Virus record (IMG/VR): IMGVR_UViG_3300037479_000624
Location: 1-24,442 of that record
Strand: one strand, 5' to 3'
Source: a virus
Lineage: Duplodnaviria; Caudoviricetes
Length of the DNA: 24,442 nt
The translations under genes and the position numbers were made by a program. Every line of letters begins with the position of its first letter. Positions within the stretch are counted from its first letter, which is position 1. Of this stretch, positions 2,833 to 24,442 are shown piece by piece. The notes below the pieces were generated by a model. The model had not been told where the DNA came from. It searched no databases and saw only the letters and a program-made list of their open reading frames with translations.

Positions 2833-2836
2833 CCAC

Positions 2837-4029: not shown

Positions 4030-4172
4030 CGGAGAAGGGCAAGCACATCCTGGCCGAGATGAAGAAGGGCTACGGCGCGAAGAAGGGCGAGCGCGTGTTC
4101 TACGCCTCGGCGAACAAGGGCACCATCCGCGGCGTCCACAAGCCGCGCAAGCCGGCGAGCGTGACGAAGTAA
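4020..4172 (+). CDS. small basic phage protein
   Basis: AGGAGGG RBS, GTG start; MPLTEKGKHILAEMKKGYGAKKGERVFYASANKGTIRGV resembles a basic protein type I recall near phage head genes. Confidence 0.75.
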   Translation: MPLTEKGKHILAEMKKGYGAKKGERVFYASANKGTIRGVHKPRKPASVTK

Positions 4173-4437: not shown

Positions 4438-4514
4438 GCGGCACCGCGGTGGGAACCCTCGCTCTGCTGGCGGCCCTGGCGTTCTACGTGGCCGTGATCG
4501 TCGGCTGGATCTGA
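4434..4514 (+). CDS. 26-aa single-TM peptide
   Basis: GTGA overlap upstream and TGATG overlap with portal start; MSGTAVGTLALLAALAFYVAVIVGWI. Confidence 0.5.
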   Translation: MSGTAVGTLALLAALAFYVAVIVGWI

Positions 4515-6250
4515 TGCCCGCCATCCTCCGGGGGGCCGAGCCGACCGCCGACGCCGCCGAGCTGGCGCGCAACTGGGAGCGGCTGCTCCAGCGGCAGGGC
4601 ACCTTCCGCGAGATGTGGCAGACGATCGCGGACTACCTCTGCCCCCACAAGAGCACCATCACGCGCACGTACGAGCCCGGGGCCAAGCAAACCTCGCGCG
4701 TGTTCGACGGGACCGGCATCCGCGCGCCCTTCCTCCTGGCCGCGTCGATCCACGGCGGGATGACCCCGGTCACCCAGAAGTGGCTCAGCCTCACGGTGCG
4801 CCAGAAGGAATTGAAGCGCCTGCCCGGCGCCCAGGCGTGGCTCGAGGAGGACGCCGACCGGCTCCACCTCGCGAAGATGCAAGCCAACTGGAACACCGAG
4901 ATTGCCGAGTGGTATCACGACCTGGTGACGTTCGGCACGGGCGCCATGCTCACCGAGGCCAAGCCCGGCGATCCGCGCGGCCTGAACCGCTTCGGCGGCT
5001 TCCGCTACAAGACCCTGCCCATCGGCTCCTACGCGATCGACGAGGGACGGGACGGCCGCGTCGACACGCTCTATCGGACCTTCACGCTCTCGCGCCGGAC
5101 GGTGCTGCGGACCTGGGGCGCCGCCGTGGCGATCGACCGGGGTTTTCGCGAGCAGGCCGAGCAGAACCCCTACGAGCCCACGGAGATCCTGCACGCCGTC
5201 TATCCGCGCCAGGAGCGGCGGCGCCGCAGCCTCGGGCCCCGCGGCATGCCGTTCACGTCCTGCTACGTGCTCATGCGCGCGGGCGACGCGCAGGGCGGGA
5301 CGGCCGCCAGCGGGGAGCGCATCGTGCTGGCCGAGGGCGGCTATCGCCAGTTCCCGTTCGCGGTCGCGCGCTGGAGCCAGACGAGCGGCGAGGTGTACGG
5401 CCGGGGCCCGGGCCACAACGCCTTGCCCGACATCCGCACGCTCAACCGGATGAAGGAGCTGAACCTCCAGTACATGAGCAAGGTCGTCGACCCGCCGATG
5501 CTCCAGAAGCACGAGGCCGTGCTCGGCGTGACCGACCTGACGCCGGCCGGGGTGACCGTCGTGGACTACGAGGGCCCGGTCGGCGAGGCCGTCTCGGCCA
5601 TGGAGATCGGGCGCAACGATCGCCAGGTGTGGATCACGGTCGACGACCTGAAAGAGTCCATCCGCGAAGCCTTCTACTGGTCCCTGCTCCAGCTCCAGGA
5701 GCGGAAGGGCATGACGGCGACCGAGGTCCAGATTCGCTACGAGTTCATGCAGCGGCTCCTGGGCCCGACCTTCGGCCGGCTCAAGGACGAGGGCTACGCG
5801 CCGATCCTGGAGCGCGACTTCGCCCTGATGGCCTTCTACGGGGCGCTCCCGCCCGTGCCCGAGGAGCTGGCCGTCTACGGCGACGCGGTGGACATCGACA
5901 TCGAGTATGAGGGCCCGCTCGCGCGCGCCCAGCGGTCGCACGACCTGGTGGCGATCGACCGCTTCAACGGCTGGCTCGGCTCGGTCCTGCCGTTCTACCC
6001 GCAGGCGCAGGACATCGCCGACTTCGACGAGCAGGGCCGCGTCGTCGCCGAGGTGGCGGGGATGCCGGCGAACATCCTGCGCGACGAGAAGGCCGTCGCC
6101 CGCATCCGCCAGGACCGCGCGCAGCAGCAGCAGCAAGCGGCGCTCCTGGAGACCATCGCCGGTGGCGCCGAGGCCCTCGGGAAAGCCGGCCCCGGCGTGA
6201 AGGCCTTGGCCGAAGCCCGCCAGGCCGGGCAGGAGGGCACGCCGGCGTGA
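4514..6250 (+). CDS. portal (head-to-tail connector) protein, T7 gp8/BPP-1-like
   Basis: 578 aa; motifs W..IADY..P, FDGTG, DLVTFGTG, RW...SGEVYGRGPG..ALPDIRTLN, MTATEV, LLGP..GRL, IEYEGPLARAQ. Confidence 0.95.
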   Translation: MPAILRGAEPTADAAELARNWERLLQRQGTFREMWQTIADYLCPHKSTITRTYEPGAKQTSRVFDGTGIRAPFLLAASIHGGMTPVTQKWLSLTVRQKELKRLPGAQAWLEEDADRLHLAKMQANWNTEIAEWYHDLVTFGTGAMLTEAKPGDPRGLNRFGGFRYKTLPIGSYAIDEGRDGRVDTLYRTFTLSRRTVLRTWGAAVAIDRGFREQAEQNPYEPTEILHAVYPRQERRRRSLGPRGMPFTSCYVLMRAGDAQGGTAASGERIVLAEGGYRQFPFAVARWSQTSGEVYGRGPGHNALPDIRTLNRMKELNLQYMSKVVDPPMLQKHEAVLGVTDLTPAGVTVVDYEGPVGEAVSAMEIGRNDRQVWITVDDLKESIREAFYWSLLQLQERKGMTATEVQIRYEFMQRLLGPTFGRLKDEGYAPILERDFALMAFYGALPPVPEELAVYGDAVDIDIEYEGPLARAQRSHDLVAIDRFNGWLGSVLPFYPQAQDIADFDEQGRVVAEVAGMPANILRDEKAVARIRQDRAQQQQQAALLETIAGGAEALGKAGPGVKALAEARQAGQEGTPA

Positions 6251-6402
6251 TGATCGTTCCGGCTGCGCTCTACTTGGCCCTCGGCATCGTCTGGTGCCCG
6301 TGGATGCTCCTGGCGCTCCTGCCGGTGACCCTGTACGCCGTGTTCGTCGTGCTCGTCTGGCTGGCCATCGTGATCGTCGGCGGGATGCTCTCCACGCGAT
6401 GA
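6250..6402 (+). CDS. 50-aa very hydrophobic membrane protein
   Basis: TGATG overlap with portal stop, ATGA overlap with next gene; MIVPAALYLALGIVWCPWMLLALLPVTLYAVFVVLVWLAIVIVGGMLSTR. Confidence 0.6.
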   Translation: MIVPAALYLALGIVWCPWMLLALLPVTLYAVFVVLVWLAIVIVGGMLSTR

Positions 6403-6749
6403 GCGCCGACCCCTGGGGCGACGACCGGGACGAGCGCCAGGCCGAGCGCGACCAGGCCGCCCGCGAGACGGTGGCCCGGCGGCAGCAGCTCGACGTCGAC
6501 ATCCTGCTGACGTTCTCGACCGACCAGGGCAAGCGCGTCCTGGCCTGGCTGGAGGAGAGCTGCTACGCCTACCGCTCGATCTTCTCGGCCGTGTCCGCGT
6601 CGGCGTCGATGGTGGACACGGCCGCGACGTTCCGCGCCGAAGGGCGGCGCACGGTCTGGACGGACGTCCACAACGCGATGAACCGGGCGCGCGCGGGGCA
6701 GCGATCCCCGGCGCCCGAGGTGAGATCCGCTGTGAGCCAGGAGGGATGA
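6399..6749 (+). CDS. Bbp19-like phage protein
   Basis: TFSTDQGKRVLAWL...AEGRRTV pattern; position between portal and scaffold. Confidence 0.75.
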   Translation: MSADPWGDDRDERQAERDQAARETVARRQQLDVDILLTFSTDQGKRVLAWLEESCYAYRSIFSAVSASASMVDTAATFRAEGRRTVWTDVHNAMNRARAGQRSPAPEVRSAVSQEG

Positions 6750-6750
6750 G

Positions 6751-7680
6751 ATGCGGCTCGACCGATGGCTGATGGTGCGACGAGCAGAGGGGGACGCAGG
6801 AGCCGGCGCCGCGGGCGCTGGCGGGGCCGCTGGTGCGGGATCGCCGGGCGGACAGGGGGGCGCCACGGGCGGCGCCGGAAAGCCGGCCGCAGGAGCCAGC
6901 GCCGGCGCGCAGGACTGGCGCGCGGGCTGGTCTGACGACCTGAAGGGCGACGCCACGCTCGCGCGCTTCAAGACGAGTGACGAGCTGGCCAAGTCCTACC
7001 TGGAGGCCCGCAAGACCATCGGGCAGACGGTGACGAAGATCCCCGGCAAGGACGCCAAGCCCGAGGAGATCGCCGCGTTCCGCGAGAAGCTCGGCATCCC
7101 GGCCGACGTCGCGAAGTACCGCGAGGCCGTGAAGCTCCCCACGATCGAGGGCGTCACGTGGGATCCCAAGGCCGTCGAGGGATTCACCGCGAAGGCCCAC
7201 GGCTGGGGCATCCCGCCCGACGTCGTGCCGCAGCTCCTCTCCGAGCTGGCCACCTACGAGAAGGGCGCGACCCAGCGCATGGTGGGCCAGTGGGTGAAGG
7301 AGCAGGAGGCCCTCGAAGGCGAGTGGGGCGCCGACTACGACGCCAAGGTCCAGGCCGGCAAGACCGCCTTCGCCTTCTACAACGAGGCCAGCGAGGGACG
7401 TCTCGCGAAGATCTTCCAGGCATCGGGGCTCGACCGGAACCCCGACGTGCTGCGCATGTTCGCCCACCTGGGCGACCTGCTCAGCGAGCACGGCTACGTC
7501 GAGGGCGAGACGGTGCCGGCCGATGGCCTCGAGGATCTCCGCGCCCAGGTGGCGGCCATCGAGAACGACCCGAAGCACCCGGCGATGGATCGGGAGCACC
7601 CCAACTACCGCCAGGCGCGCGAGCGGTACGAGGGACTGCTCAGGAAGCTCTACGGCACGGGGCCGGCGCGGCGCGGTTGA
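6751..7680 (+). CDS. capsid scaffolding/assembly protein
   Basis: GGAGGG RBS; G/A-rich N-terminal linker, DW..., LAKSYLEA, EWGADYD, GL..NPDVLRMF; directly upstream of the capsid gene. Confidence 0.85.
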   Translation: MRLDRWLMVRRAEGDAGAGAAGAGGAAGAGSPGGQGGATGGAGKPAAGASAGAQDWRAGWSDDLKGDATLARFKTSDELAKSYLEARKTIGQTVTKIPGKDAKPEEIAAFREKLGIPADVAKYREAVKLPTIEGVTWDPKAVEGFTAKAHGWGIPPDVVPQLLSELATYEKGATQRMVGQWVKEQEALEGEWGADYDAKVQAGKTAFAFYNEASEGRLAKIFQASGLDRNPDVLRMFAHLGDLLSEHGYVEGETVPADGLEDLRAQVAAIENDPKHPAMDREHPNYRQARERYEGLLRKLYGTGPARRG

Positions 7681-7706
7681 CGTGCTCCTATCACATGCGA
7701 TAGGAT
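7677..7706 (+). promoter_or_regulatory. sigma70-like promoter for the capsid gene with overlapping palindrome
   Basis: TTGACG (7677-7682), 18 nt spacer, TAGGAT (7701-7706); near-perfect palindrome TCCTATCACATGCGATAGGA 7686-7705. Confidence 0.65.
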
Positions 7707-7709
7707 CGC

Positions 7710-7860
7710 TGCGGGTTCCACCACAACCCCGCGCCAGCGGGCCGGTGGTGAGGGCGGGGTAGGCACCCGCCGAAGGAGCGCCGCGCCAGGGCGCGAGGGG
7801 GCCGGCCATGGGCCACAACCCCCCGTCACGGACAGGCACCAGCAGTCCATGACCGGGAGC
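7710..7860 (+). other. structured 5' leader of the major capsid mRNA
   Basis: Several GC hairpins (GCGGGTT/AACCCCGC, GGCGGG/CCCGCC) in one of the few long intergenic gaps. Confidence 0.45.
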
Positions 7861-7867
7861 CAGGCCC

Positions 7868-8773
7868 ATGATCTTCAACGAAGCGTGGTTCGTCCACGCC
7901 CTCAACGCCGAGGTGGATCTGCTCGCGCAGCAGCTCGAGCAGGCCACCCGCGGCAGCTACCGCCTCAAGGATGGGGTGATCGGCAAGACCTGGCCGTTCA
8001 ACATGATCGGCCCGGCCCGCATGAGCCCCATCACGCGGGACAGCGATACGACCTACGTCAACCCCGGCCAGACCAAGCGCCGGGCCCAGCTCGTCGACCG
8101 CGGCGTGGCGGCCCTCATCGACGACTTCGACCGCATCAAGACGGTGGCCGACATCGACCCGGCCATCACGGAGACGCTCGCCGCCGCCAAGAACCGCGAG
8201 AAGGACGTCATCTGCATCAGCGCCGCGCTCGGCAACGCGGTCACCGTCGACGAGGCCGGCGAGGTGACCGGCGTCCAGGCGCTCCCGGGCAGCCAGACGA
8301 TCGCCCACGGCAGCGTCGGCCTCACGGTGGCCAAGGTGCTCGACGTGAACGAGCGGTTCAACAAGGCCAACGTGCCCCAGCAGGATCGGTACATGTTCTA
8401 TTCGGCCGAGGCCATGACCGACCTGCTCCAGAACACGCAGGTCACGGACTCGAACTTCAACACCATCAAGGCCCTGGCCGAGGGCGGATTCCCGCAGGAC
8501 CAGAAGTGGTGCAACCTCTTCTGGCGGATGGTGACGGGCTTCATCGACGAGGCCCAGACCATCCCCATCCTGCCCAAGACCGGCAACATCCGCACCTGCG
8601 TCGCCTGGCAGAAGCGCGGCGTCGGCGTGGCCATGGGGCTCGACAAGAGCATCGAGACCGGGCCGGCCCCGCACAAGTGGAACAACCAGCAGATGGTGCT
8701 CAAGCTCTCGATGGGCGCGGTCCGCATCCAGGATGCCTACGTCGTCGCCGTCGAGATCGACGAGAGCGTGTAA
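7868..8773 (+). CDS. major capsid protein
   Basis: 301 aa after scaffold; LAQQ..., F..IG, LIDDFD.IK...D, AAA.NR.KD.I..AALG, C-terminal MGAVRIQD..VV.VE. Confidence 0.9.
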   Translation: MIFNEAWFVHALNAEVDLLAQQLEQATRGSYRLKDGVIGKTWPFNMIGPARMSPITRDSDTTYVNPGQTKRRAQLVDRGVAALIDDFDRIKTVADIDPAITETLAAAKNREKDVICISAALGNAVTVDEAGEVTGVQALPGSQTIAHGSVGLTVAKVLDVNERFNKANVPQQDRYMFYSAEAMTDLLQNTQVTDSNFNTIKALAEGGFPQDQKWCNLFWRMVTGFIDEAQTIPILPKTGNIRTCVAWQKRGVGVAMGLDKSIETGPAPHKWNNQQMVLKLSMGAVRIQDAYVVAVEIDESV

Positions 8774-8782
8774 GGAGGAGCC

Positions 8783-11493: not shown

Positions 11494-12144
11494 ATGGCAG
11501 ACTCTGAGGTCGCCATCGTCAACCAGGTCCTCGTGCAGCTCGGGCAGACGCCCCTCGTCAGCCTGGACGACGAGACGGACGTGGCGCTCACCGCCCGCAC
11601 GCTGTACGCGCCGACGCGCGATGAGATCCTGGCCGACCACCCCTGGAACTTCGCCATCCGCCGCGCAGGGCTCGTGCAGATCGCCGACCCGCCGGCGCCG
11701 GCCGATCCGATCCCCCTCTACGGCTTCGCCTACGCCTACCAACTCCCGCCCGGGGGCGAGTCCACGGAGCCCCCGTACTGCCTGCGCGTGCTCGACACCA
11801 GCGAGGACGGCACGTGGGGCTCGCCCGTGTCCGGCTGGTGGGGCCCGTGGAACTGGTCGGAGCTGTGGCAGGTGGAGGGCCGCACGCTCGTCACCAACGC
11901 CACAGCCATCCAGATTCGCTACGCCGGCCGGATCACGGACACCGTGCTGTTCGCGCCGTGGTTCGAGCGGGCCCTCGTGGCGGCTTTGACCGCGAAGCTA
12001 GCCGGGCCGCTGCGCCAGTCGGACGCGGCCATCGAGTTGTGGGAGAAGAAGTTCGAGCGCGCGCTCAGCCGCGCCAGGGCGATCGACGGGCAGGAGGGCC
12101 GCTACGCGCCGCGCGCCGCGTATGACCTGCTGATCGTCCGGTAG
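11494..12144 (+). CDS. tail tubular protein A / head-tail adaptor (T7 gp11-like)
   Basis: SEVAIVN..L..LG, L..HPWNFA.RR, Y.YQLP..CLRV, F..ALVAAL.AKLA, A.AIDGQE. Confidence 0.88.
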   Translation: MADSEVAIVNQVLVQLGQTPLVSLDDETDVALTARTLYAPTRDEILADHPWNFAIRRAGLVQIADPPAPADPIPLYGFAYAYQLPPGGESTEPPYCLRVLDTSEDGTWGSPVSGWWGPWNWSELWQVEGRTLVTNATAIQIRYAGRITDTVLFAPWFERALVAALTAKLAGPLRQSDAAIELWEKKFERALSRARAIDGQEGRYAPRAAYDLLIVR

Positions 12145-12148
12145 GCCC

Positions 12149-14605
12149 ATGCCCCGCGGGCGCATCCCGACCACCTCGTGGTCCCGCGGCGAGATCGACC
12201 CGCTACTCGAAGGCCGCGTCGACCTGGAGCAGTACTACAACGGCGCCCGCACCCTCGAAAACATGCTGGTGCGGGAGACGGGCCCCGCCCAGCGCCGGCC
12301 GGGCACGCGCTTTGTCGGCGCCACCAAGACGCCGAGCGAGACGGCCAAGCTCGTGCCCTTCATCTTCTCCGAGAGCCAGGTGTACATGCTGCTCTTCGGC
12401 GAGGGGTACATCTGGGTCTACAAGGACAACGCCCGCGTGGGCACCGTCGAGATCCCCACGCCCTACCTGGAAGAGGACCTGCCGCTCCTGCGCTTCGAGC
12501 AGAGCGCCGATGTGCTCTACATCGCGTGCACCTTCTACCAGCCGCGCGTGCTGGAGCGCTACAGCGACACCGACTGGCGGCTGAAGGTCTTTCCGCCCAC
12601 CCAGGCCGGCACGCCGCCGAGCCGGGAGTACGGCGAGCGCCCCTCGGCCACCGTCACGCCGAGCGCCACCACCGGGACCGGCGTGACCTTCACGGCCAGC
12701 GCGGCACAGTTCCTGGCCTCCGACGTGGGGCGCTTCATCGCGATCCTGGCGGGCGCCAACGCCGGGGCGCGGGCTCTCATCACCGGCTTCACCAGCTCGA
12801 CCCAGGTGACCGGCGATGTCATCGACAACTTCGTGACCCTCGCGGCGAACGCGGCGACGGACTGGAAGCTCACCGACTCGCCGGTGACGACCTGCACGCC
12901 GAGCGCGGCCGGCCCGGTGGGCGCCACCATCACCCTGACGCTCGGCGCCGCCGGCTGGCGCTCCACCGACGTCGGCAAGTTCGTCTTCATCAACGGCGGG
13001 ACGTGCCTCATCACGAGCATCACCACGACGACGGTGGCGAACGCCAAGGTGCTCACCGCCCTCAGTGGCACGACGGCGGCGCAGGGTGGAGCCTGGCTGC
13101 TGGAGGAGACCGCGTGGTCGTCCTTCAACGGGTTCCCCGCGGCGGTGTCCTTCGGCCCCGGCGATCGCCTGTTCTGGGCGGGGACGCTGGCGCAGCCGAC
13201 GACCGTCTGGGGCTCGGCGGTGGGGGACTACACGAACTACGCCGCGGGCTCACTCGATGACGAGGCGGTGGAGTTCAGCCTGAACACCCGCGAGGTCAAC
13301 CAGATCGTGTGGCTCGCGTCCGGCAAGGATCTCATCGCCGGGACGCTCGGCGTGGGGATCCCCATCACGACGGCGAACGATACGCCGTTGACGCCCTCCA
13401 ATCCCCCGTCCTCGTTCCCCGAGGCGCGGTACGGCGCGTCGCCGCTCGTGGCGCCCGTCAAGGTGGGCAATGCCATCCTGTTCCCCTCGCGCAGCGGCCG
13501 GCGCCTGCGCGAGCTGGTGTACCGCTACGAGGAGGACGCCTATCGGGCGCCGGATCTGCTGCAGCTCGCCGGGCACCTCACGCGCGGCGCGGGCCCGCCG
13601 CCCGACGGGGAGCCCGTCACGATCCCGCGGCGCCTCGTCGACCTGGCCTACCAGGAGGAGCCTGTCTCGACGATCTGGGCGGTGCGCGAGGACGGCGTGC
13701 TCCTGGCCTGCACCTATCTCCGCTACGAGAACGTGGTCGCGTGGTCGCGCGTGGTCATGAACGGCCGCGTCGAGGCCGTCGCCGTCATCCCGCACCCGGA
13801 CCAGGACCGCGAGCAGGTGTGGCTCATCGTCCGGCGCAATATTGGGGGCGCGGTGTGCCGTTACGTGGAGTACCTGGACGACTCCACCATCGTCTACGAC
13901 CGGCGCCACGTGGACGCGGCCGTGACCTACGACTTCACCGTGACCGGCAAAACCTGTCAGCCGCTCGCGGTGGAGGGCATCGGTGTCACCTTCGTCGGCA
14001 GCGGGGGCCCCTTCGCCGTGGGCGACGTCGGCAAGCAGATCCGCAATCTCCAGGGCACCGGCATCGCCACCATCACCGCGTTCACGGATGCCGACCACGT
14101 GACGGCGGATATCATCGCGCCGTTCCCCTCGACGGCGCCCATGGCCTCGGGTGCCTGGGCCCTCTGCCCGTTCACGCTCACGGGGCTCGGCCACCTCGAC
14201 GGCTACATCGTCGACGTGCAGGGGGATGGGGTGGCGTTCCCGCAGCAGCTCGTCGTCGGCGGCGCCATCACCCTCGACGCCACCGCGGTCAGGCTCGAAG
14301 TGGGCAGCCACTATTCGTCCATCCTCACCACGGTTCGGCCCGGCCAGCTCGAGCAGGCCCTCGACAAGCGCCTGGGCGAGATCCTGGTGCGCCTCCACGA
14401 GAGCCTGGGCATGACCGTCAATGGCGAGGCGGTGACCTTTCGCTCGACGTCGGACCCGCTGGACACGCCCCCGCCGCTCTTCACGGGCGACAAGAAGGTA
14501 ACCAAGCTCGGCATCGACAACGAGGGGCGCATCACCATTCGCCAGGACCAGCCCTTGCCACTGACCGTCTCCTACGTGTCGGGGTTGTATCAGACGGGCG
14601 CATGA
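12149..14605 (+). CDS. tail tubular protein B / nozzle (T7 gp12, P22 gp10-like)
   Basis: GEIDPLL.GRVDL..Y, RRPGT.FV, LVPF.FS, QSADV, G.P.AV.F..RL, AYQ.EP...W.V..DG.L, Q.QPLPLTV. Confidence 0.9.
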   Translation: MPRGRIPTTSWSRGEIDPLLEGRVDLEQYYNGARTLENMLVRETGPAQRRPGTRFVGATKTPSETAKLVPFIFSESQVYMLLFGEGYIWVYKDNARVGTVEIPTPYLEEDLPLLRFEQSADVLYIACTFYQPRVLERYSDTDWRLKVFPPTQAGTPPSREYGERPSATVTPSATTGTGVTFTASAAQFLASDVGRFIAILAGANAGARALITGFTSSTQVTGDVIDNFVTLAANAATDWKLTDSPVTTCTPSAAGPVGATITLTLGAAGWRSTDVGKFVFINGGTCLITSITTTTVANAKVLTALSGTTAAQGGAWLLEETAWSSFNGFPAAVSFGPGDRLFWAGTLAQPTTVWGSAVGDYTNYAAGSLDDEAVEFSLNTREVNQIVWLASGKDLIAGTLGVGIPITTANDTPLTPSNPPSSFPEARYGASPLVAPVKVGNAILFPSRSGRRLRELVYRYEEDAYRAPDLLQLAGHLTRGAGPPPDGEPVTIPRRLVDLAYQEEPVSTIWAVREDGVLLACTYLRYENVVAWSRVVMNGRVEAVAVIPHPDQDREQVWLIVRRNIGGAVCRYVEYLDDSTIVYDRRHVDAAVTYDFTVTGKTCQPLAVEGIGVTFVGSGGPFAVGDVGKQIRNLQGTGIATITAFTDADHVTADIIAPFPSTAPMASGAWALCPFTLTGLGHLDGYIVDVQGDGVAFPQQLVVGGAITLDATAVRLEVGSHYSSILTTVRPGQLEQALDKRLGEILVRLHESLGMTVNGEAVTFRSTSDPLDTPPPLFTGDKKVTKLGIDNEGRITIRQDQPLPLTVSYVSGLYQTGA

Positions 14606-14943
14606 TGGACGCCAACGGCCGCGACGAGATCGGCGTCAAGCTCCCTGGGGGGGCCGGGGGCTACCTCAAGGGCTTCAATCTCATCATGATCGTCCTCCTG
14701 CTCGGTGGCCTGGCCCTGGCCCTCTACGTGATTCACCTGGACGCGACGGCCGACGCGACGTCGCACGCCGCGATCGCGCAGAACCAGGATCGGCTCGTGA
14801 ACGCCATCACCGTGCAGAACTGGCTCCTGTCGCTGCCCGCCGAGCGCCGGCCACCATTGCCGCCCCCGTGTCCGGCGCTCCGCGCGATCTATGGGACCAT
14901 GGCCATTCCGGGCGAGTGCCGGCCGCCATGGGAGCCCCGGTGA
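14602..14943 (+). CDS. single-TM membrane protein with Pro/Cys tail (start 14602 or 14605)
   Basis: ATGATG overlap with nozzle stop; FNLIMIVLLLGGLALALYVI TM segment. Confidence 0.65.
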   Translation: MMDANGRDEIGVKLPGGAGGYLKGFNLIMIVLLLGGLALALYVIHLDATADATSHAAIAQNQDRLVNAITVQNWLLSLPAERRPPLPPPCPALRAIYGTMAIPGECRPPWEPR

Positions 14944-15461
14944 GCGCCGCGGTCCTTACCAGGACCGGCTACGTCGTGCGCCCCTTCGCACCCGAGGACT
15001 ACGGGATCGTCCACGAGGCCATCCGCGCCGCCGGCGGGCCCGCGCTCGTCAACGACCCGGAGGAGATGGGGCGCCTCTACCGCCACAAGGGCCCCGCCTG
15101 GACGGCGACGTTCGACGGCCGCGTGCTCGGGTGCGCCGGCGTCGTCATCAACTGGATCGGCTGCGGCGTGGCGTGGCTCGTGATGACCCCGGAGGGGCGA
15201 GAGAATCACCCGCTCGTCGCGGCGCGGCTCGTGCGCCGGCTGCTGCCCGAGGCCGCGCGCGGGCTCCGGCGCCTGGAGGCCGACGTGCTGGAGGGGTGGG
15301 AGGCCGGGGAGCGCCTCATGCGCTGGCTCGGCTTCGAGAAGGAAAGCCGGATGCCGCAGTACGGGCCGCGGGGCGAGGCGTTCTGCAAGTGGGCATTCTT
15401 CCCGTATAATTCCTCTATCGTTGACGATGTTCCACGTGAAACGAGGGGGAGATGCGCGTAG
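14940..15461 (+). CDS. GNAT-fold protein (T7 gp13-like position)
   Basis: GTGA coupling; G.VLGCAGV..W.G.G.AW, RRLEADV..., R.MRWLGFEKE..M..YGP.G. Confidence 0.75.
   Translation: MSAAVLTRTGYVVRPFAPEDYGIVHEAIRAAGGPALVNDPEEMGRLYRHKGPAWTATFDGRVLGCAGVVINWIGCGVAWLVMTPEGRENHPLVAARLVRRLLPEAARGLRRLEADVLEGWEAGERLMRWLGFEKESRMPQYGPRGEAFCKWAFFPYNSSIVDDVPRETRGRCA
15428..15443. promoter_or_regulatory. parS-like site TGTTCCACGTGAAACG
   Basis: 15/16 match to the bacterial parS consensus TGTTNCACGTGAAACA; lies in an AT-rich patch. Confidence 0.7.
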
Positions 15462-16048
15462 CCCATCCCTGGGAACCCGACGCCGAGCCCGCCCGCCCGG
15501 GCCTCTGCTCAACCGGCGTGGAGACGGCGCTGCTCGTGGCCGCGGCCGTGGCCGCTGCGGGGACCGCCTACAGCATCTACGCCAGTGGCCAGGCCCAGCA
15601 GGCGGCCGGGGAGTACAACGCGGATGTCGCCGAGCAGCAGGCCCAGGCCGCCCGCGCCTCGGCGGCCGTGGACGAGGAGGCCGCGCGCGAGAAGGCCCGG
15701 CGCATCCAGGCCGCCGCGCGGGCCGCCTACGGCGCCTCGGGCGTGAGCCAGGAGGAAGGCTCACCCCTGCTCGTGCTCATGGACAACGCCGCCCAGGCCG
15801 AGCTGGAGGCCCAGCGCATCCGGTATGCGGGCGAGCTGGCCGCCACGGGCTACGGCAACCAGGCCACGCTGGCGCGCACGCAGGGCGCCCAGGCCGCGCA
15901 GGCGGGCCAGATCGGCGCCGGGATCTCGCTGCTCAGCTCGGGGGCGAGCATCGGCTACCGGGCGTACTACGGGATGAATCGGCCTGGCGACTTCGCGGCG
16001 CTCCAGAGCCCGGCCTATCAGGCGTACCGCCGGGGCGAGCGGTTCTGA
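15452..16048 (+). CDS. small internal virion/ejection protein (T7 gp14 / P22 gp7-like)
   Basis: Hydrophobic Ala-rich N-region, YNA.VA.QQA, A.YGASGV...GSPL. Confidence 0.8.
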   Translation: MRVAHPWEPDAEPARPGLCSTGVETALLVAAAVAAAGTAYSIYASGQAQQAAGEYNADVAEQQAQAARASAAVDEEAAREKARRIQAAARAAYGASGVSQEEGSPLLVLMDNAAQAELEAQRIRYAGELAATGYGNQATLARTQGAQAAQAGQIGAGISLLSSGASIGYRAYYGMNRPGDFAALQSPAYQAYRRGERF

Positions 16049-16049
16049 C

Positions 16050-17699
16050 GTGAAAATCCCCCAGATCGTTTCCGGCGCCGGCATCCCCGCGGGCATCCCT
16101 GCGGGCCAGGCGCGGGCCATCAATCCCGCCGGCACGATCGCCTCGGGCCTCAGTGATGTGGCCAACGTCGCCGTGCGCGCGCTCGACGCCCGCCAGCGCC
16201 TCCAGGCCGAGCAAGAGAAGATCGCCGCCGAGAGCGACGCGGCCGAGCGCCTGGCCCGCTTCGAGGTGGGCCTGGCCGAGTTCGACACCGGCCTGCGGCG
16301 GACGCAGCAGGACCCCACGGCGTACCTGGAGCAGTACCAGGAGGGCGTCCAGCGCCTCCGCGACGAGATCCTGGCCAACGCATCGGGTCCTGCCAGCGCG
16401 ATCCTGACGAAGAAGCTCACGCCCTACCTGGCCGGCAAGCAGATCGACGCCACGCACCACGCGGACAAGCTCTTCGTGGACGCCAACGAGGCGTCGCTCA
16501 CGCGCACGCTCGACCAGCGCGCCCAGCTCGCGGGGCTGGCCCCGATCGGCAACGCCGACGAGTTCGTGCGCCAGTACCGCGAGGCCGTCGCGGCGATCGA
16601 GGCCCGCCGGCCGATCCTCGGCAACCAGAAGACCGAGGCCCTGCTCATCAAGACCCGCGAGGGGTTCTTCGCGGAGCGGGCGCGCCGCCACGCCACCCTG
16701 GACCCCGAGTCCTTCATCCGCGAGGTGGAAGGGGGCGCATTCTACGAGGGCATGGACCCCACCCGGCGCGAGGCGCTCGTGGAGGGCGCGTCCCGGCGCA
16801 TCGAGGCCCGCCAGCGCGAGGCCGACCGGCTCCAGGCCAGGGCCGAGCGGACCTACGAGCACCAGCTCCGGCAGCAGCAGGACGAGGCCAACATCCGCGC
16901 GCGCCAGCTCTTCGACCGGGGCGCGCTCACCGTCGAGTGGCTCGACGACGCGGCCGAGCTGCGGCTGCTCACCCCGGAGAAGTACGAGCACTTCGTCACG
17001 CTCTTGAAGAAGGCGGCCGAGGAAGAGCCCAAGGCGGACCCGGCGCTGGTCCGTCGGCTCGGCGTCGAGGTGTACCGCATCGGCACCGACCCGCGCGCGA
17101 TGCAGCGCAAGGTGGAGCAGCTCATCGCGGACGGCCGGCTCCCCTACAAGGGCGAGGCCGAAAAGTGGCTCGGCCATCTCGAAGCGAGGGCCCGGTCCGA
17201 CGCGCTCCGGGCCGATGCGCAATCGGAGCGTGCGGAGCGCCGCGCCGAGGCCCTGGCCGAACGCGCGGAGACCCGGCGCCGCTCCGATCTGAACGCCGCG
17301 CACAGCCAGGCCGAGCAGCTCCTCGCCAACGACCTGCGCACGCGCTCGCCCTTCGAGCCCTTGAGCCAGGACGGCCAGATCGCGCTGGCCGACGCGCTGC
17401 GGGATCTCACGCGGGCTTCGGCCGCGATGGGCGGCAGCCAGCACCCGCTCGACTGGTACGAGGCGAACCGGCTCACGTACGTGGCGCGCGTGTCGGACGC
17501 GGCCCGCAATCGCCTCGAGGCCATCCGCCGCGAGATCGCTGCCGCGGGCTTCCAGAACGCGGCCGAGCTGGCGCGCGCCCGGCCGCGCCTGAGCGAGCAG
17601 GCGTACTACCGGCTCGTCGACCGCTTCCGCGACCTGGACATCCTCTCGCGCGAGGTGGGCCAGCTCGAGGCGCTGTCGAAGGTGAAGCGGGCCCCGTGA
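16050..17699 (+). CDS. internal virion/ejection protein (gp15-like position)
   Basis: MKIP start, helical charged composition, synteny. Confidence 0.7.
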   Translation: MKIPQIVSGAGIPAGIPAGQARAINPAGTIASGLSDVANVAVRALDARQRLQAEQEKIAAESDAAERLARFEVGLAEFDTGLRRTQQDPTAYLEQYQEGVQRLRDEILANASGPASAILTKKLTPYLAGKQIDATHHADKLFVDANEASLTRTLDQRAQLAGLAPIGNADEFVRQYREAVAAIEARRPILGNQKTEALLIKTREGFFAERARRHATLDPESFIREVEGGAFYEGMDPTRREALVEGASRRIEARQREADRLQARAERTYEHQLRQQQDEANIRARQLFDRGALTVEWLDDAAELRLLTPEKYEHFVTLLKKAAEEEPKADPALVRRLGVEVYRIGTDPRAMQRKVEQLIADGRLPYKGEAEKWLGHLEARARSDALRADAQSERAERRAEALAERAETRRRSDLNAAHSQAEQLLANDLRTRSPFEPLSQDGQIALADALRDLTRASAAMGGSQHPLDWYEANRLTYVARVSDAARNRLEAIRREIAAAGFQNAAELARARPRLSEQAYYRLVDRFRDLDILSREVGQLEALSKVKRAP

Positions 17700-20600
17700 A
17701 CGACGCGCAGGTGCTCACCGAGCGCGAGGCCCGGCGACGCCGCGAGCTGGACGCCTGGGTCGCGCAGCAGGTGGCCGCGCCGCAGGAGCAGCAGGCGACC
17801 ACGGTCCAGTACAAGGAGCCCTTTGGCCCGCCATCGCCCACCTTCGGCCAGAAGGCCGGCCAGGCGGCCGGGCAGATGGCGCGCACGGCGACGGCGACAC
17901 TCCGCACCGCCGCCGGCGCCATCGGAACGGGGCTGTGGCGCGGTGCCGAGTCGCTCGCCGAGGGCACGCGCAACATCATGGAGGGGCTCATCACCGTGAC
18001 GTCGGCCGTGCCCGTCACGCGCACGCCGCTCGCGCTGGATGAGTGGAGCGCCCGGATGCACGGCGTGAAGCGCGTCGTGGATGGACTGTTCCAGGTGGTC
18101 CTCTCGCCGGCGGCGGCCGCCACGGGTACGATCGGCGCCGGCGTCGACACCATGGCCCCGGGCGCGCTGGATGTGCCGTTCCTGGACCCGAACGTGTCGG
18201 CGTTCATCCGCATGAGCATGGGCGGGGCGACGCCGGAGGCGCCCTTCGGGGACCGGACCCCCATGACCGGGCGCGAGGTGCTCGACATTGTGGGCGGTCT
18301 CCTGTTCCTGGGGGGCGCCCACAGGGCCGTGGCGGGCCGTGGAGAGGCCCGGGGGAGAGCAGTACCCGCAGAATCGCCCCGAGCGCTTCCAGGGGGCACC
18401 CTGGAGCGCAAGGCGCTCCCGGCCATCGGGGAGACCACGCCGCCGACCGTCCGCGGACCGATCCCGCAGCCCGGGACGGTGGCACCCCGCGAGCTGACCC
18501 CCACGGAGCGATGGATCGTGCTCGACCGGCTCCGGCGCGAGGGCAAGCTCGAGCGTCTCATGCGCGCGGTCGAGGAGCAGGCGGCGGCCACCGCCCAGCG
18601 GGCCGAGGTGCTCCGCGAGCGGTTCCCACGGCGCGAGGCCGAAGGGGAGCCCGCGCGCGTCGAGGGCCGCCCCCCGGAGCTCCAGGCGGGGGAGCTGGTC
18701 GACCCGCAGGGCCGGCCGCTCCCGCCGGCGGGCGAGCCCACGATGACCGGCCGCGAGCGCGAACGGGCGCTCGGCAAGACGCCGCTTGGTGAGCCAGCGC
18801 GTGCGCAGGGCGAGGCGCCTGCCACGGGCACGCTGGAGACCCCGGCCGGCCCACTGCGCACGCGCGCCGAGATCCTCGCCGAACGCTACCCGCCTGAGCT
18901 GCGCGACGTCGCCGACCAGGCCGAGCAGGCCGTCATCGACGTCATGGCGCAGTGGGAGCGCCGCGCCGCGTCCGTGCGGACCGAGGCGGCGCGCCGCGAC
19001 CTGGCCCTGCGCCGCCAGGCCGAGGACGCCGAGTGGCTGCGTCGCGCCACGGAGAAGCCCGAGGAGGCTGGTCCGTCGCCGATCGACGCCGAGCTGGCCG
19101 AGGCCGGCGACTTCTTCACGACCATGGCGCGCCAGGAGCAGCAGGCGGCCGCCACACGCTTCACCGAGGAGGCCTACGCGGCAGCCCTCCAGCTCCCGGG
19201 CGTCAACCCCGCCACCATCGACGTGCTCGGCCTCATGGTCACCGAGCTACGCGAGGCCCGGGCCGGCCGGCGTATTCCAATCACGGAGCGCATCGAGGGC
19301 AAGGGAAAGGTCACGCGCACGATCGCCGAGCCCTCGACCTACCCCGACTACATCGACCAGCTCGGCTATCCGCGGACGCGGGCCGGGGCCGATCGGCTGG
19401 CCGCCGACATCGAGCGCGTCCTCGATGGCAAGGCGAGCCCGGAGAAGGCCGGACCGATCATCGACTACGCGAACCAGCAGACGGCGCGCTACCTCGGCGA
19501 GCAGGGGAGCGCCAACGTCGAGCTGCTCGCGCGCATGGCCGTGGGGGCGCTCATCGGCGGCAGCACGGGCGACACGCCGGAGGAGCGCATCCAGAACGGG
19601 CTCCTGGGGATGGGGCTCGGCGCGATCCTCTCGCGCCAGCTCGCGCGGACCTTCGTGGAACGCCTCAAGCAGCGCGGCCCGGTCGGGGAACCCGGTCCCA
19701 CGTTCAACGTGATCCTGATTCCCAACCTCCGGTGGATCGAGGCCAGCGAGAAGGTCAAGACCTTCCTCAGCGAGATCACCCAGGAATCGGCGCTGGCCAA
19801 GGAGGTCGAGGCGCAGGCGCGGGGCGTCCGGCCACGCGCCGAGACGGAGGCCGCGGCGCTCCGGCTCATCAAGGGCGGCCGCTTCCGCGCACAGAAGGTG
19901 CTCGACTTCGAGCCCGGCACGATCCTCAACGCCGAGCAGGCCGCGGCCGCGCGCATGCTCACCATCGCCTCAGCGAACCGCGCCGTGCGGATCGCCGGCG
20001 AGGTGAAGGCCGGCCGCGCCTCCATCGACGACCTGCACGCCGCCGTGGCGCTCTCCGGCCGCATGGTGGCCAATACCCACGCGGTCATGACGGAGCAGGG
20101 GCGGGCGCTCAACGCGCTCGGGATGACGGTGTCCGGGGACGTGCCGCTCAAGATCAGCCCGGAGCGACTCGCCGAGGTGGCCGCGCAGGCGCCGCGGGAT
20201 GCGCGCCTGGTCGACATCGTGCTCGATCTGGCCGCCGAGCACGGCCCCGAGCAGGTGGGCCGCTTCGCGCGCGCGTGGTCGGCGCTGCCGGACGCGCTGA
20301 TGGAGCTGTACTACGGCTTCCTGCTCTCGAACCCGCTGACCCAGCTCCGCAACACGGTGGGAAACACGCTCGCCACCGTGACGGCCCTGGCCGAGCGCCA
20401 GGCAGCCGGCGTCGGCGCCGCGTTCAATCCCTTCGCCGCGCCGAGCAAGGCCCACGTCGCCCTCGGCGAGGCCGGCCAGATGGCCGTGGCCGGGTTGGAG
20501 ACGCTGCGTGACTCGCTGCGGCTGGCCTACCGCGCCGCGCGCAGCGCCGAGGCCAACGTGACGAAGCTGGACACGCCCTTCCGCGAGCCGGCGATCACCG

Positions 20601-22135
20601 CCGAGCGGTTCGGCATGGACCCGGCGACGCCGTGGGGCGGCTTCGTCAACGGGCTGGGCTCCGTCGTGCGCGCCCCGCTGCGCGGGCTGGAGATCACCGA
20701 CACCTTCTTCAAGGCGTTGAGCTTCTCCATGGAGCGCAAGGCGCTCGCGCTCCGGCACGCCGAGTTCGAGGGGCTCACGGGCGAGGCCAAGGCCGCACGC
20801 ATCGCCGAGCTGTGGCGCGACCCGCCCGAGTGGCTGATGACCCAGGCGTGGGACTTCGCCAGGGAGCAGACCTTCTCGCGCGACTTCGAGGGGCGCATGG
20901 CGAGCCTCCAGCGCGGCCTCTCGCATCCGCTGCTCAAGATGACCATGCTGCCGTTCTTCCGCACGCCGCTGCGGCTGGCCGAGTACGCGGCCGTGCGGAC
21001 GCCGGTGCTCAACCTCATCACGTCGCAGTTCTGGGGCGACCTCCAGGCCGGCGGCGCGCGGCGCGAGCTGGCCATGGCCAAGCTCGGCACGGGCGCGGCG
21101 ATCGCCACGGCGGTCAGCTACGCGGTGCTCCAGGATCTCATCACGGGAAATCCGCCCAAGGACGCCGGAGAGCGGCGCCGCGCCGAAGAGGCCGGCGTCC
21201 AGTGGAAGAGCATCTACAACCCCGCCAGCCGGCGCTACTACTCGTACGACAACCTCGAACCCATCTCCTCGATCGTGGCCACGGTCGCGGATACCGTGAC
21301 CCTGATGCGCAAGCTCCCCGACGTCGAGGACGTCGAGACCCGGCTCGGCCAGCTTGTGACGGCCGTGACCCTGAGTGCCACCCGGAACCTGGCCAGCAAG
21401 CAGTACCTCGAATCGGTCGGCCGCTTCCTCGACGCCGTGCAGGAGCCGGACACGAACGCGGCGCTCAAGACCCTCCAGCGCCAGCTCGCGTCGTGGGTGC
21501 CCGCCATCGTCGGCCAGGCCGAGCGGATCTACGACCCGGCGATGCGCGAGACCGAGACGCTCCTTGAGGAGTTCCAGGCGAAGATCCCCGGGCTCAGCGA
21601 GACGCTGGTGCCCCGGCGGAACGTCATCACGGGCGAGCCCCTGCCGCACGGTGGCTTCACGCGCGAGAAAACGACGGACCCGGTGCTGCTCGAGATCCTC
21701 CGACTCGACGGCGCCGGCATCCGGGCCCCGCGGCCCTACGTCGCCGGCCGGGCGCCAACCACCGCACCGATCCCGATGGAGGAGCCGAGCGCGGGGCAGG
21801 GGATCGACCTGAACAAGCGGGAGTACGACCGGCTCATCGTCCTGATGACGCAGGAGCCGGGCGCCGGCGGGAGAACGCTGCACCAGGCCCTCGGCGACCT
21901 GATCGCGTCGCCGAACTACCAGCGGCAGGGCGATGGCCAGGACGGCGGCAAGGCGCTCCTGCTGCGCAACGTCTACCACGCCTACGTGGAGAGCGCCCGG
22001 GCGCGGCTGCGCCAGGAGAACCCCGAGCTGGAGGCGAAGATCCGGCGGCGGATGGAGGAGCGGCGCTTCCGGCTCACGCCGAGCGACCAGCCGGCCGGCG
22101 CCGTCCAGCAGCTCATGGACACACTCGGGAGGTAG
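17696..22135 (+). CDS. large internal virion/ejection protein (gp16-like position), about 1479 aa
   Basis: GTGA coupling gives start 17696; LLSNP.T..RN..GN, PFFRTP, YYSYD.LEP motifs and Gly-rich hydrophobic hairpins. Confidence 0.8.
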   Translation: MNDAQVLTEREARRRRELDAWVAQQVAAPQEQQATTVQYKEPFGPPSPTFGQKAGQAAGQMARTATATLRTAAGAIGTGLWRGAESLAEGTRNIMEGLITVTSAVPVTRTPLALDEWSARMHGVKRVVDGLFQVVLSPAAAATGTIGAGVDTMAPGALDVPFLDPNVSAFIRMSMGGATPEAPFGDRTPMTGREVLDIVGGLLFLGGAHRAVAGRGEARGRAVPAESPRALPGGTLERKALPAIGETTPPTVRGPIPQPGTVAPRELTPTERWIVLDRLRREGKLERLMRAVEEQAAATAQRAEVLRERFPRREAEGEPARVEGRPPELQAGELVDPQGRPLPPAGEPTMTGRERERALGKTPLGEPARAQGEAPATGTLETPAGPLRTRAEILAERYPPELRDVADQAEQAVIDVMAQWERRAASVRTEAARRDLALRRQAEDAEWLRRATEKPEEAGPSPIDAELAEAGDFFTTMARQEQQAAATRFTEEAYAAALQLPGVNPATIDVLGLMVTELREARAGRRIPITERIEGKGKVTRTIAEPSTYPDYIDQLGYPRTRAGADRLAADIERVLDGKASPEKAGPIIDYANQQTARYLGEQGSANVELLARMAVGALIGGSTGDTPEERIQNGLLGMGLGAILSRQLARTFVERLKQRGPVGEPGPTFNVILIPNLRWIEASEKVKTFLSEITQESALAKEVEAQARGVRPRAETEAAALRLIKGGRFRAQKVLDFEPGTILNAEQAAAARMLTIASANRAVRIAGEVKAGRASIDDLHAAVALSGRMVANTHAVMTEQGRALNALGMTVSGDVPLKISPERLAEVAAQAPRDARLVDIVLDLAAEHGPEQVGRFARAWSALPDALMELYYGFLLSNPLTQLRNTVGNTLATVTALAERQAAGVGAAFNPFAAPSKAHVALGEAGQMAVAGLETLRDSLRLAYRAARSAEANVTKLDTPFREPAITAERFGMDPATPWGGFVNGLGSVVRAPLRGLEITDTFFKALSFSMERKALALRHAEFEGLTGEAKAARIAELWRDPPEWLMTQAWDFAREQTFSRDFEGRMASLQRGLSHPLLKMTMLPFFRTPLRLAEYAAVRTPVLNLITSQFWGDLQAGGARRELAMAKLGTGAAIATAVSYAVLQDLITGNPPKDAGERRRAEEAGVQWKSIYNPASRRYYSYDNLEPISSIVATVADTVTLMRKLPDVEDVETRLGQLVTAVTLSATRNLASKQYLESVGRFLDAVQEPDTNAALKTLQRQLASWVPAIVGQAERIYDPAMRETETLLEEFQAKIPGLSETLVPRRNVITGEPLPHGGFTREKTTDPVLLEILRLDGAGIRAPRPYVAGRAPTTAPIPMEEPSAGQGIDLNKREYDRLIVLMTQEPGAGGRTLHQALGDLIASPNYQRQGDGQDGGKALLLRNVYHAYVESARARLRQENPELEAKIRRRMEERRFRLTPSDQPAGAVQQLMDTLGR

Positions 22136-22138
22136 CCA

Positions 22139-24262
22139 ATGAAGCGACTGACCGCAGCCCTCGTGTGGGCCCTGCTCCTGTCGTGGCTGACGCTGGTGGC
22201 CAGCGCCACGGTGACAACGACCACCGCCCGCAACGACTACACCGGGAACGGCGCCACCACGGTCTACCCGTACACCTTCCGCATCCTGGCCAACTCCCAC
22301 ATCCAGGTGATGGTCAACAACGTGGTGAAGTCCCTCACCACGGACTACACGGTGTCGGGGGTGGGCTCGCCCACAGGAGGCAACATCACCTTCCTCGTGG
22401 CGCCGCCGACCGGCCAGGCCATCGTGTTCTCGCGCCGCGTCCCGTTCACGCAGACCACCGACTACGTGCAGGGCGGCCCGCTGCCGGCCGAGACGCTGGA
22501 GCAGAATCTCGACAAGCTCACCATGATGGTGCAGCAGCTCCAGGAGCAGCAGCTCGCGCTCGCGGTGCCTCCCACGAACACCGTGTACTACAGCGCGAGC
22601 GCGGCGTCGGCCGCCATCGCGAACACCACGACGGAGACCACGTTCAGCACCGGGACGGTGACCGTCGCGGCCGGCGATCTGAACCAGCTCGGCGCCGTGC
22701 TGTGCGTCTCGGCTGGGGGGACGTACAGCACCACCGGGACGCCCACGCTCACGCTGCGCATCAAGACGCCCACCAGCACCACGACCCAGCTCGCGGCGAC
22801 GACCGTCACCAGCGCGAGCAACGAGCCCTGGTCGATCACGGCCTGCTGGACCGTGACCGCGATCGGCGCCTCCGGGGCCCTCGGCCGCGCGGGTGGGCTG
22901 GCGACCGTCTCGTCCACCACCGGCAACACGGCCGCGGGCACGGGCGCCGCGGTGGACCTCACGGTGAGCCAGAACTTCACCGTGACGGCGCAATGGGGCA
23001 CGGCGAACGCCGCGAACACGATCACGGCGCGCGGCGTGGCCGCCTGGCTGGACCGACAGCAGTCGTCGCCGGCCCTCCTGGCCAGTTTCAGCGGGAGCGG
23101 GACGGCCAGCGGGTTCGCCTACTGGACGGGGCCCAACGTGCTGGCGAGCCAGGTGAGCGGCATCGACCTGGCGATCAACGGGCACGCGACGCTCAACGCG
23201 GTGATGTCCCGAGGGACGAACGGCGCGCCGGACACCACCATCGGCCCGATGGCGTCGTTCTTTCGCATCGTGAATCAGTCGGCGTCGGCGTGTGACGGGG
23301 GGTCCGGGTTCTCTCCCGACTGCGCCTCTGGGCTCCAGGTGGTCGTGAATGGCACGACGGCGAACCAGGTGCAGCCGGTCGCCGCGTTCTTCGGAGGCCA
23401 GAACGACGCGACCACGGGAGACACCGTGTCCCCGCCCGGTGGACAGGCTGACTTTGCCGCGGTCTACGCGCACGCGCAGCTCAAGGTGGCGCCGAGCACC
23501 GGCAGCAAGCAGTCGATCGCCGGCTTCTTCGCGGCGCGGCGGGACGTGTCCACCAACTCGCTCATCCATGCCCTCGAGCTGGCGACGGAGAACTACACCT
23601 CGGTCGACTGCAACGTCGAGGACGTGAACTACCAGGGCGCCGACTGCGCCGGGATCTACCTGTTCAGCACGGGCGGCACGACGCACAAGAACGGCATCGG
23701 CATCGTGATGGGCGCCTCGGACCCCACGGCGAACATCAGCCGGTTTCAGTACGGATACACGTGCATGGGCGCCGGCCGCGGGCCCACGGTCGCGTGCTTT
23801 GCCGATGCGACCACGGCGACGTCCAGTCTGCTGCTCAAGGGCACCTACCAGAACGCCATCAACCTGCTGAGCGCGACCCTCACGGGGCCGGCGATCCTCT
23901 TGAAGAACGACACCAGCATGGGATGGGGCGGCGGCGCGAACCCCGTCATCCTCACGGCATCCGATGGGACGGGTGTGCTCACGCTGAGCTGGAACGGCGG
24001 GGCTGGCGGCACGGCGACGCTCAAGCTCGTCGGCACGGGGTCGAACCCGAACAAGCACATCCGGTCCGGTATCGGGGGAAGCGGCTACTTCGAGGTCATG
24101 AACAGCGCCAACAGTGCGGCGCTGCTGCAGATCGCCAATGGCGGCAACGTCTACATCCCTGCCATGGCGACTGGCAGCGCGGGCGGCAAGAAAGTGGTGT
24201 GTTACGACACCGCCACCAAGGAGCTGATCTATAGCTCCACCTCGACCGACTGCACCAACTGA
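22139..24262 (+). CDS. tail fibre/receptor-binding protein with T7 gp17-like N-terminal adaptor, preceded by a signal peptide
   Basis: YTGNGATTVYPYTFRI...DYTVSGVG...GG.ITF..AP...R.VP.TQ.TDY..G..LPAETLE..LDKLTM..QQL adaptor; T/A/G-rich beta body; GGGAGG RBS. Confidence 0.88.
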   Translation: MKRLTAALVWALLLSWLTLVASATVTTTTARNDYTGNGATTVYPYTFRILANSHIQVMVNNVVKSLTTDYTVSGVGSPTGGNITFLVAPPTGQAIVFSRRVPFTQTTDYVQGGPLPAETLEQNLDKLTMMVQQLQEQQLALAVPPTNTVYYSASAASAAIANTTTETTFSTGTVTVAAGDLNQLGAVLCVSAGGTYSTTGTPTLTLRIKTPTSTTTQLAATTVTSASNEPWSITACWTVTAIGASGALGRAGGLATVSSTTGNTAAGTGAAVDLTVSQNFTVTAQWGTANAANTITARGVAAWLDRQQSSPALLASFSGSGTASGFAYWTGPNVLASQVSGIDLAINGHATLNAVMSRGTNGAPDTTIGPMASFFRIVNQSASACDGGSGFSPDCASGLQVVVNGTTANQVQPVAAFFGGQNDATTGDTVSPPGGQADFAAVYAHAQLKVAPSTGSKQSIAGFFAARRDVSTNSLIHALELATENYTSVDCNVEDVNYQGADCAGIYLFSTGGTTHKNGIGIVMGASDPTANISRFQYGYTCMGAGRGPTVACFADATTATSSLLLKGTYQNAINLLSATLTGPAILLKNDTSMGWGGGANPVILTASDGTGVLTLSWNGGAGGTATLKLVGTGSNPNKHIRSGIGGSGYFEVMNSANSAALLQIANGGNVYIPAMATGSAGGKKVVCYDTATKELIYSSTSTDCTN

Positions 24263-24274
24263 AAGGACCATCGC

Positions 24275-24442
24275 GTGAGCAAGGGGTTGTCGATCATCAC
24301 CGCCATCTCGGCCTCGCTCGTCGGGCTGTTCTGCGCCTGGCAGCTCACCAGCCAAACGGTCTTGCTCGTGCTCAACGCCCAGGTGACGGCGGCCCAGGCG
24401 CAGGCGCAGCTGCGCGCGTGCGAGGCGCGGACGGCGAAGTAG
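24275..24442 (+). CDS. 55-aa membrane-anchored protein (i-spanin-like topology)
   Basis: AAAGGA RBS, GTG start; N-terminal TM followed by A/Q helix with Cys. Confidence 0.55.
   Translation: MSKGLSIITAISASLVGLFCAWQLTSQTVLLVLNAQVTAAQAQAQLRACEARTAK

Follow-up and report, generated by a model that had tools for sequence, protein, structure and literature searches.

The accepted view is that tailed phages complete their particles in the cytoplasm, ahead of lysis, and the T7 fibre gp17, which has no leader, is assembled in that compartment. In P22 the tailspikes, and in T7 the fibres, join the particle at the final step, and they bind finished particles spontaneously in vitro. The phage proteins that pass through Sec include pIII and pVIII of filamentous phages, secreted endolysins, spanin lipoproteins and superinfection-exclusion proteins; of these, pIII and pVIII come from untailed phages with assembly at the membrane, and the secreted endolysins, spanins and exclusion proteins are not virion parts.

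The fibres closest to the one described here are Carin-1 Dpo31 (8CK1, 28LX), the epsilon15 tailspike and the fibres of phiV10 and HTVC010P, all of which have the same tail anchor, starting from residue 2. In the available portion of PMC13317679, Dpo31 is described as binding the tail via its D1 domain. No signal peptide on a tailed-phage fibre is described in the available portions of that paper or of PMC5723332, PMC12635225, PMC9144972 and PMC3556154, and a literature search, with most subscription journals and supplements outside its reach, returned no description of a Sec-exported tailed-phage fibre.

The structural module and its fibre

The window (the whole stretch of DNA analysed, 24,442 nucleotides) is the structural module of an uncultured podovirus with 71% GC. 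Its structural operon is of the Carin-1/epsilon15 type, and the final large gene (22139-24262) encodes a 707-aa fibre and lies after genes of that type for the connector, nozzle and ejection proteins (Table 1), the connector and nozzle also having matches in Carin-1 8CK1. Whereas Dpo31 aligns from its own residue 2 and has no leader, the window's fibre carries a leader of 23 aa in place of the leaderless Met-Thr start typical of Carin-1 and epsilon15 fibres, and its distal part is cysteine-paired and unrelated to the Dpo31 type. It is considered a variant because of this leader and the strong ribosome-binding site (RBS) in front of it. The phage collection gave 121 matching records, of which none covers 80% of the leader-plus-anchor query, the 40 matches listed aligning from residue 31, and the leader is a feature absent from the solved and cultured members of the fibre family.

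Table 1. Features of the window, in order of position, with domains given by residue of the fibre
Feature	Position	Strand	Remarks
Portal, scaffold-like and major capsid genes	4514..8773	+	Leaderless; portal 4514-6250, capsid 7868-8773
Tail connector/adaptor protein	11494..12144	+	Leaderless; 8ck1_E, E 3.6e-4; expected docking partner
Tail nozzle	12149..14605	+	Leaderless; 8ck1_A, E 5e-77; expected docking partner
Three internal virion (ejection) protein genes	15452..22135	+	Leaderless; directly 5' of the fibre gene
Shine-Dalgarno GGGAGGT	22127..22133	+	Overlaps stop codon of the upstream ejection-protein gene
23-aa Sec/SPI-type leader	22139..22207	+	n-region MKR, h-region, Ala-Ser-Ala cleavage motif
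Tail-anchor beta-sandwich and start of coiled coil, residues 24-144	22208..22570	+	Carin-1 Dpo31 D1 / epsilon15 tailspike N-terminal type
Predicted beta-sandwich (jelly-roll-like) domain, residues 146-306	22574..23056	+	Cys189 and Cys236; low-confidence model
Distal fibre, residues 307-707, Gly/Thr/Ala-rich	23057..24262	+	Close Cys pairs 385/395, 491/503, 542/553, 688/705
55-aa gene, hydrophobic N-terminus, predicted coiled coil	24275..24442	+	No family match

The RBS, which can be read as GGGAGG (22127-22132) or GGAGGT (22128-22133), reaches into the upstream TAG (22133-22135) and is separated by 5 nt from the ATG at 22139. Because the RBS overlaps this stop codon, fibre translation is likely coupled to that of the upstream ejection gene; no promoter-like site was found near the fibre gene, and no terminator excess there. 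The anti-Shine-Dalgarno duplex has an energy of -11.6 kcal/mol at ATG22139, among the strongest of the twelve starts compared, against -4.9 kcal/mol at the in-frame GTG22211 and 0.3 and -1.5 at two further in-frame GTGs. GC3 is 0.91 in the 22 leader codons and 0.94 in the remainder of the fibre gene, compared with 0.71 and 0.57 in the other frames; the leader is coding-like, and the strong start is the leader start. The stretch is held by two public runs from two studies, and, since an independent 534-nt contig from a run of a different study (X2) spans 21741-22274 with zero differences or gaps, the junction of leader and anchor is not an assembly error.

The N-terminus, MKRLTAALVWALLLSWLTLVASA and then TVTTTTARNDYTGNG, has a basic n-region, an uncharged hydrophobic h-region and small residues at -3 and -1, the properties of a Sec/SPI signal peptide under a rule-based test with controls, and contains neither a twin-Arg motif nor a lipobox. 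In the AlphaFold model, residues 3-15 of the leader form a helix of their own. Three of the 31 window genes tested pass the signal rule, namely the fibre, the 55-aa gene after it and one small membrane protein, while the portal, capsid, connector, nozzle and ejection proteins all fail it. For the 55-aa product, which also contains Cys, roles as a co-exported fibre chaperone or in lysis are possible.

Downstream of the leader, the anchor matches PHROG 1640 over residues 24-144, from profile position 2 (E 1e-42), and Pfam PF03906 at its gathering cut-off (E 1.4e-5). Among solved structures, Carin-1 Dpo31 is nearest through its D1 domain (8CK1, profile E 1e-29), with 8ck1_B as the top Foldseek match. 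In the AlphaFold model of the full fibre the anchor, an N-terminal beta-sandwich followed by a coiled coil, is confident (pLDDT around 90 for residues 31-100) and the remainder is of low confidence. The preliminary description had called this a T7 gp17-like anchor; a relation to the gp17 N-terminal fold stands, through the PF03906 match at cut-off and weak structural matches to 7EY7 and 7BOZ, but the type is that of Carin-1 Dpo31, epsilon15 and HTVC010P, distant from T7 gp17. As regards a beta-helix depolymerase domain, Pfam and PHROG give no match past residue 165 or so, and the distal model is of low confidence. For the domain at residues 146-306, comparison with small viral proteins (models only) gives TM scores of 0.74-0.80 by target; modelled alone it has a pLDDT of 49 and no significant PDB match.

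Distribution of leaders among homologous fibres

When only the anchor served as query, a hydrophobic leader ending precisely at the anchor start was present in 13 of the 120 best-matching proteins (12 of 119 without the window's own), and the other 107 have Met there. Two further searches with leader-plus-anchor profiles enlarged the set to 338 proteins, which is leader-enriched and gives no readable prevalence; in it, 86 divergent proteins have leaders of 12-35 aa ending at the anchor start. With the junction placed by the anchor HMM alone, Ala occupies -1 in 76 of these 86 leaders, and after four junctions were shifted by a small pattern rule there is Ala at -1 in 80, Ala, Val, Ser or Thr at -3 in 81 and Thr at +1 in 74. 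The n-region has a net positive charge in 82 leaders, the Tat motif RRxF[LI] is found in none and lipobox-like matches in two, and the full n/h/c rule is passed by 75. In the 119 leaderless control loci, by comparison, no in-frame upstream leader passes the n/h rule. These homologues and controls, together with the X2 contig, bear out the observation in the preliminary description of a GGGAGG RBS followed by a leader with basic n-region, h-region and A-S-A motif fused directly to the anchor, and its reading of the leader as an export signal is supported as far as sequence features can indicate.

Cleavage at the predicted site would restore the usual N-terminus, as had also been proposed: the homologues' leaders stop at the point where leaderless sequences continue after their Met, and MTV, MTI or MTL opens 220 of the 252 leaderless proteins. 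The start of the anchor is itself conserved (Thr 79-88%, Val 73-81%), and the anchor conservation profiles of leader-bearing and leaderless proteins correlate over 113 columns (Spearman 0.75). In the nearest relative, P0002, the leader is 27% identical to that of the window's fibre and the anchor 71%; leader sequences thus diverge, and it is therefore the property that is kept and not the sequence.

A first DNA pattern was too loose, none of its 119 matched loci being anchors. A leader-blind pattern, with Ala fixed before the anchor and nothing else of the leader specified, gave 15 loci over three collections, of which nine are true anchors and six chance matches, the genome-collection part consisting of three false matches. 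All nine true anchors are preceded by a hydrophobic leader, although those of L151 and L155 are long (46-51 aa counted from the first ATG) and atypical, and L150 and L156 are near-copies. The leader is rare overall, because replacing Ala by a start codon in this pattern yields about 1,300 IMG/VR stretches, against two for Ala. A search of IMG/VR with the upstream ejection protein yielded no relative, and the nozzle as query yielded three loci, none of which reaches a fibre. Among prophages of the phylum of a Geobacteraceae bin, a diderm phylum, 18 anchors were found in 14 of 401 genomes, none with a leader.

In a tree built from the 338 anchors (118 columns, with many forks unresolved), the leader needs 17 changes, at least six of them on well-supported branches, compared with 76 changes for shuffled labels. 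A single clade of leader-bearing fibres is rejected (p-AU 1e-4) in a test on 48 rows chosen after the 338-anchor tree had been viewed. On account of these changes and this rejection, repeated gain or loss of the leader is likely, in a direction that the tree does not make readable. Close relatives occur on both sides of the divide, as in P0017 and P0163 (66% identity over 400 aa). More widely, some leader-bearing and leaderless fibres share 61-66% identity across roughly 400 distal residues (P0017, P0123 and P0124 compared with P0163 and P0157, and P0125 compared with P0152), and such pairs are natural material for testing the effect of the leader.

Cysteine content

The mature window fibre has 10 Cys, eight of them in close pairs, and for the pairing alone P is 0.15. 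Among proteins having any Cys, an even count is seen in 55 of the 77 that bear a leader and in 71 of the 206 that lack one. After the distal parts had been clustered (dereplicated), 324 of 398 Cys were paired in leader-bearing representatives, where random placement predicts 185, and 352 of 636 in leaderless representatives, where it predicts 294. The window's pairs 385/395, 491/503, 542/553 and 688/705 match positions in P0238, P0016, P0228, P0134 and P0121, all leader-bearing, and pairs at matching positions were seen in leader-bearing fibres only. The link between leader and cysteines is not significant over six phylogenetically independent contrasts, a test of low power in which the lean is in the same direction (2.4 versus 0.1). 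Eighteen of the 86 leader-bearing fibres have no Cys or a single one, and P0003, the sister of the window's fibre and leaderless as recorded, has 11 Cys and the Cys-rich tip common to leader-bearing fibres. Disulfide formation in the exported fibre is likely, with metal binding as a possible alternative role for some of the pairs. In P0159 and P0329, both leader-bearing, a Cys pair lies within the first strands of the anchor.

Genomic context of leader-bearing fibres

The fibre is in the canonical position in seven of the nine true-anchor loci, those long enough to show context, following tail and ejection genes in L148, L149, L150, L154, L155 and L156 and head genes in L147. In L155 the late operon closes with holin-like and endolysin genes after the fibre. 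The order in L147 is unlike that of the window, with the leader-bearing fibre (7996-9149) directly after the capsid region and before any tail genes. In L148, the nozzle homologue (1839-4162) is seemingly split into two adjacent ORFs of 194 and 579 aa.

A six-frame search found one anchor each in the window and in L147, L148, L149, L151, L153, L154 and L155. Two anchors each are present in L150 and L156, where a leaderless 184-aa anchor gene (3215-3769 and 2062-2616, respectively) lies directly upstream of the leader-bearing fibre. The records of all these loci are partial. The window's fibre protein also occurs on a 27,668-bp record that extends 3.2 kb beyond the window; the window is probably less than a whole genome, and a leaderless anchor may lie beyond it.

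In L147, L149 and L154 the gene next after the fibre also opens with a signal-like leader. That of L147 (10675-10935) is small, with a hydrophobic N-terminus, a coiled-coil-like body and a Cys, and could encode a co-exported fibre chaperone. Further genes with signal-like leaders stand in series on the minus strand of L149 past the fibre (about 14030-20073 on the reverse complement) and in L154 after 7532, and these series include a protein with 30 Cys and a length of at least about 1,000 aa.

Signal-bearing proteins in other tailed phages

In the Cellulophaga phages phi18:3 and phi10:1, seven of 24 virion proteins with MS/MS annotation in the GenBank stretches examined pass the signal rule. 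The seven (phi18:3 gp085-087 and phi10:1 gp091-094) are all encoded in the fibre position. They have no homology to the window's fibre or anchor, contain few cysteines and belong to phages of Bacteroidota. Their presence indicates that tailed virions can be accompanied by signal-bearing proteins, without saying as much of the window's fibre, and co-purification could explain it. No paper discussing the leaders of these seven was found in a search that had the original proteomics paper and supplements outside its scope.

Proposed assembly route and its alternatives

Under the proposed route, translation would start at ATG22139, coupled to that of the upstream gene, and the leader would direct the fibre through the host Sec translocon. 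Cleavage by signal peptidase I behind Ala23 would then expose Thr-Val as the N-terminus, the same end that removal of Met leaves on leaderless fibres. Folding, trimerisation and disulfide formation would take place beyond the cytoplasm, in the periplasm, and the fibre would dock on particles still lacking fibres when lysis breaches the inner membrane, a timing that we infer. Export and cleavage are, on the features of the leader and its homologues, very probable. The fibre probably ends up attached to the virion, because its anchor is conserved, because there is no second anchor in the window or in four other loci (L147, L149, L154 and L155) and because the Cellulophaga phages offer a precedent. 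The whole chain, from coupled start through Sec export, cleavage at Ala23 and periplasmic folding to docking at lysis, is the most likely reading, at somewhat better than even odds.

The preliminary description had also allowed for an exported fibre that is displayed or secreted to block receptors, which is less likely than joining of the virion. In its general form, this alternative holds that the exported fibre acts off the virion, in the periplasm, at the surface or after release, in receptor masking, superinfection exclusion or as a decoy, and that another, leaderless protein is the virion fibre. It would fit the second, leaderless anchor of L150 and L156, the gain and loss of the leader across the tree, the likelihood that the window falls short of a whole genome and the several leaderless genes of no assigned family between capsid and tail. 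The 86 divergent proteins, however, keep the conserved residues of virion-bound anchors, for which a free factor would have no need, and the presence of just one anchor in the window and in each of four other loci, the late-operon position and the coupling to an ejection gene also speak against an off-virion role, which is unlikely.

A division of labour between two products of the one gene is more doubtful still. In this case an internal start (GTG22211, or Met at +1 in a few relatives) would give a cytoplasmic virion form, and the leader-bearing form would be exported for another task. GTG22211 is in frame, its weak Shine-Dalgarno energy resembles those of two core genes (the gp15/gp16-like starts), and Met directly follows the cleavage site in four of the 86 homologues; the other 82 lack it, and a start at Val25 would cost the conserved Thr-Val. 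The idea that this GTG, at about 22211, is the true start, considered in the preliminary description, is contradicted by the homologues: the codon at its position is GTT, GTC, GTA or ATA in all nine loci and a start codon in none.

Slightly less credible again is a leader that is uncleaved or slowly cleaved and tethers fibres to the inner membrane until lysis, in the manner of signal-arrest-release proteins. Some leaders are long enough to suggest this (30-35 aa, and longer in L155 and L151 if counted from the first ATG), but most homologues have small residues at -1 and -3 that coincide precisely with the ancestral N-terminus, a sign of selection for cleavage, and the C-terminal side of a tethered fibre would face outward all the same. 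Mis-assembly or chance 5' extension of an ordinary fibre gene, conceivable for a metagenomic window with no close isolate, is very improbable given the independent contig over the junction, the strong RBS, the coding-like GC3, the 85 further leader-bearing homologues and the absence of such leaders from the 119 control loci.

Returning to export followed by docking on the virion, a fibre that crosses the inner membrane would place the last assembly step outside it, and such a route, if confirmed, would be new for tailed phages. A more general proposal is marginally favoured: in several tailed-phage lineages, the head and tail core would be built in the cytoplasm while the fibre (with partners, perhaps a chaperone) is exported by Sec, oxidised by the host and joined at lysis, and leader gain would be a small, repeatable step that makes disulfide-bonded domains available to evolving fibres. 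If the fibre is exported, the infectivity of progeny would be tied to the mode of lysis, host Sec and the disulfide machinery, which would offer a new target for host defence. Annotators would call such genes morons or trim their starts, and the leader is a warning for cytoplasmic expression of phage receptor-binding proteins. These proposals are testable, since closely similar fibres with and without a leader exist and cultured Cellulophaga phages have analogous proteins.

Other genes of the window

No endolysin or terminase was recognised within the window. Upstream of the portal, a lipoprotein-like gene (1590-1910, +) with the lipobox VAGC and a further Cys pair overlaps the gene for a 62-aa two-helix membrane protein (1907-2095, +; phrog_13256), and the two are a possible lysis pair of the spanin/holin type. 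The lipoprotein gene fits a diderm host and is no proof of one. A 73-aa protein (3316-3537, +) has a hydrophobic N-terminus and one Cys pair, without a basic n-region, and may, judging from these features, be another exported protein. The tandem 105-aa genes at 550-867 and 879-1199 (+), of no PHROG family, are clearly alike and have a long motif in common.
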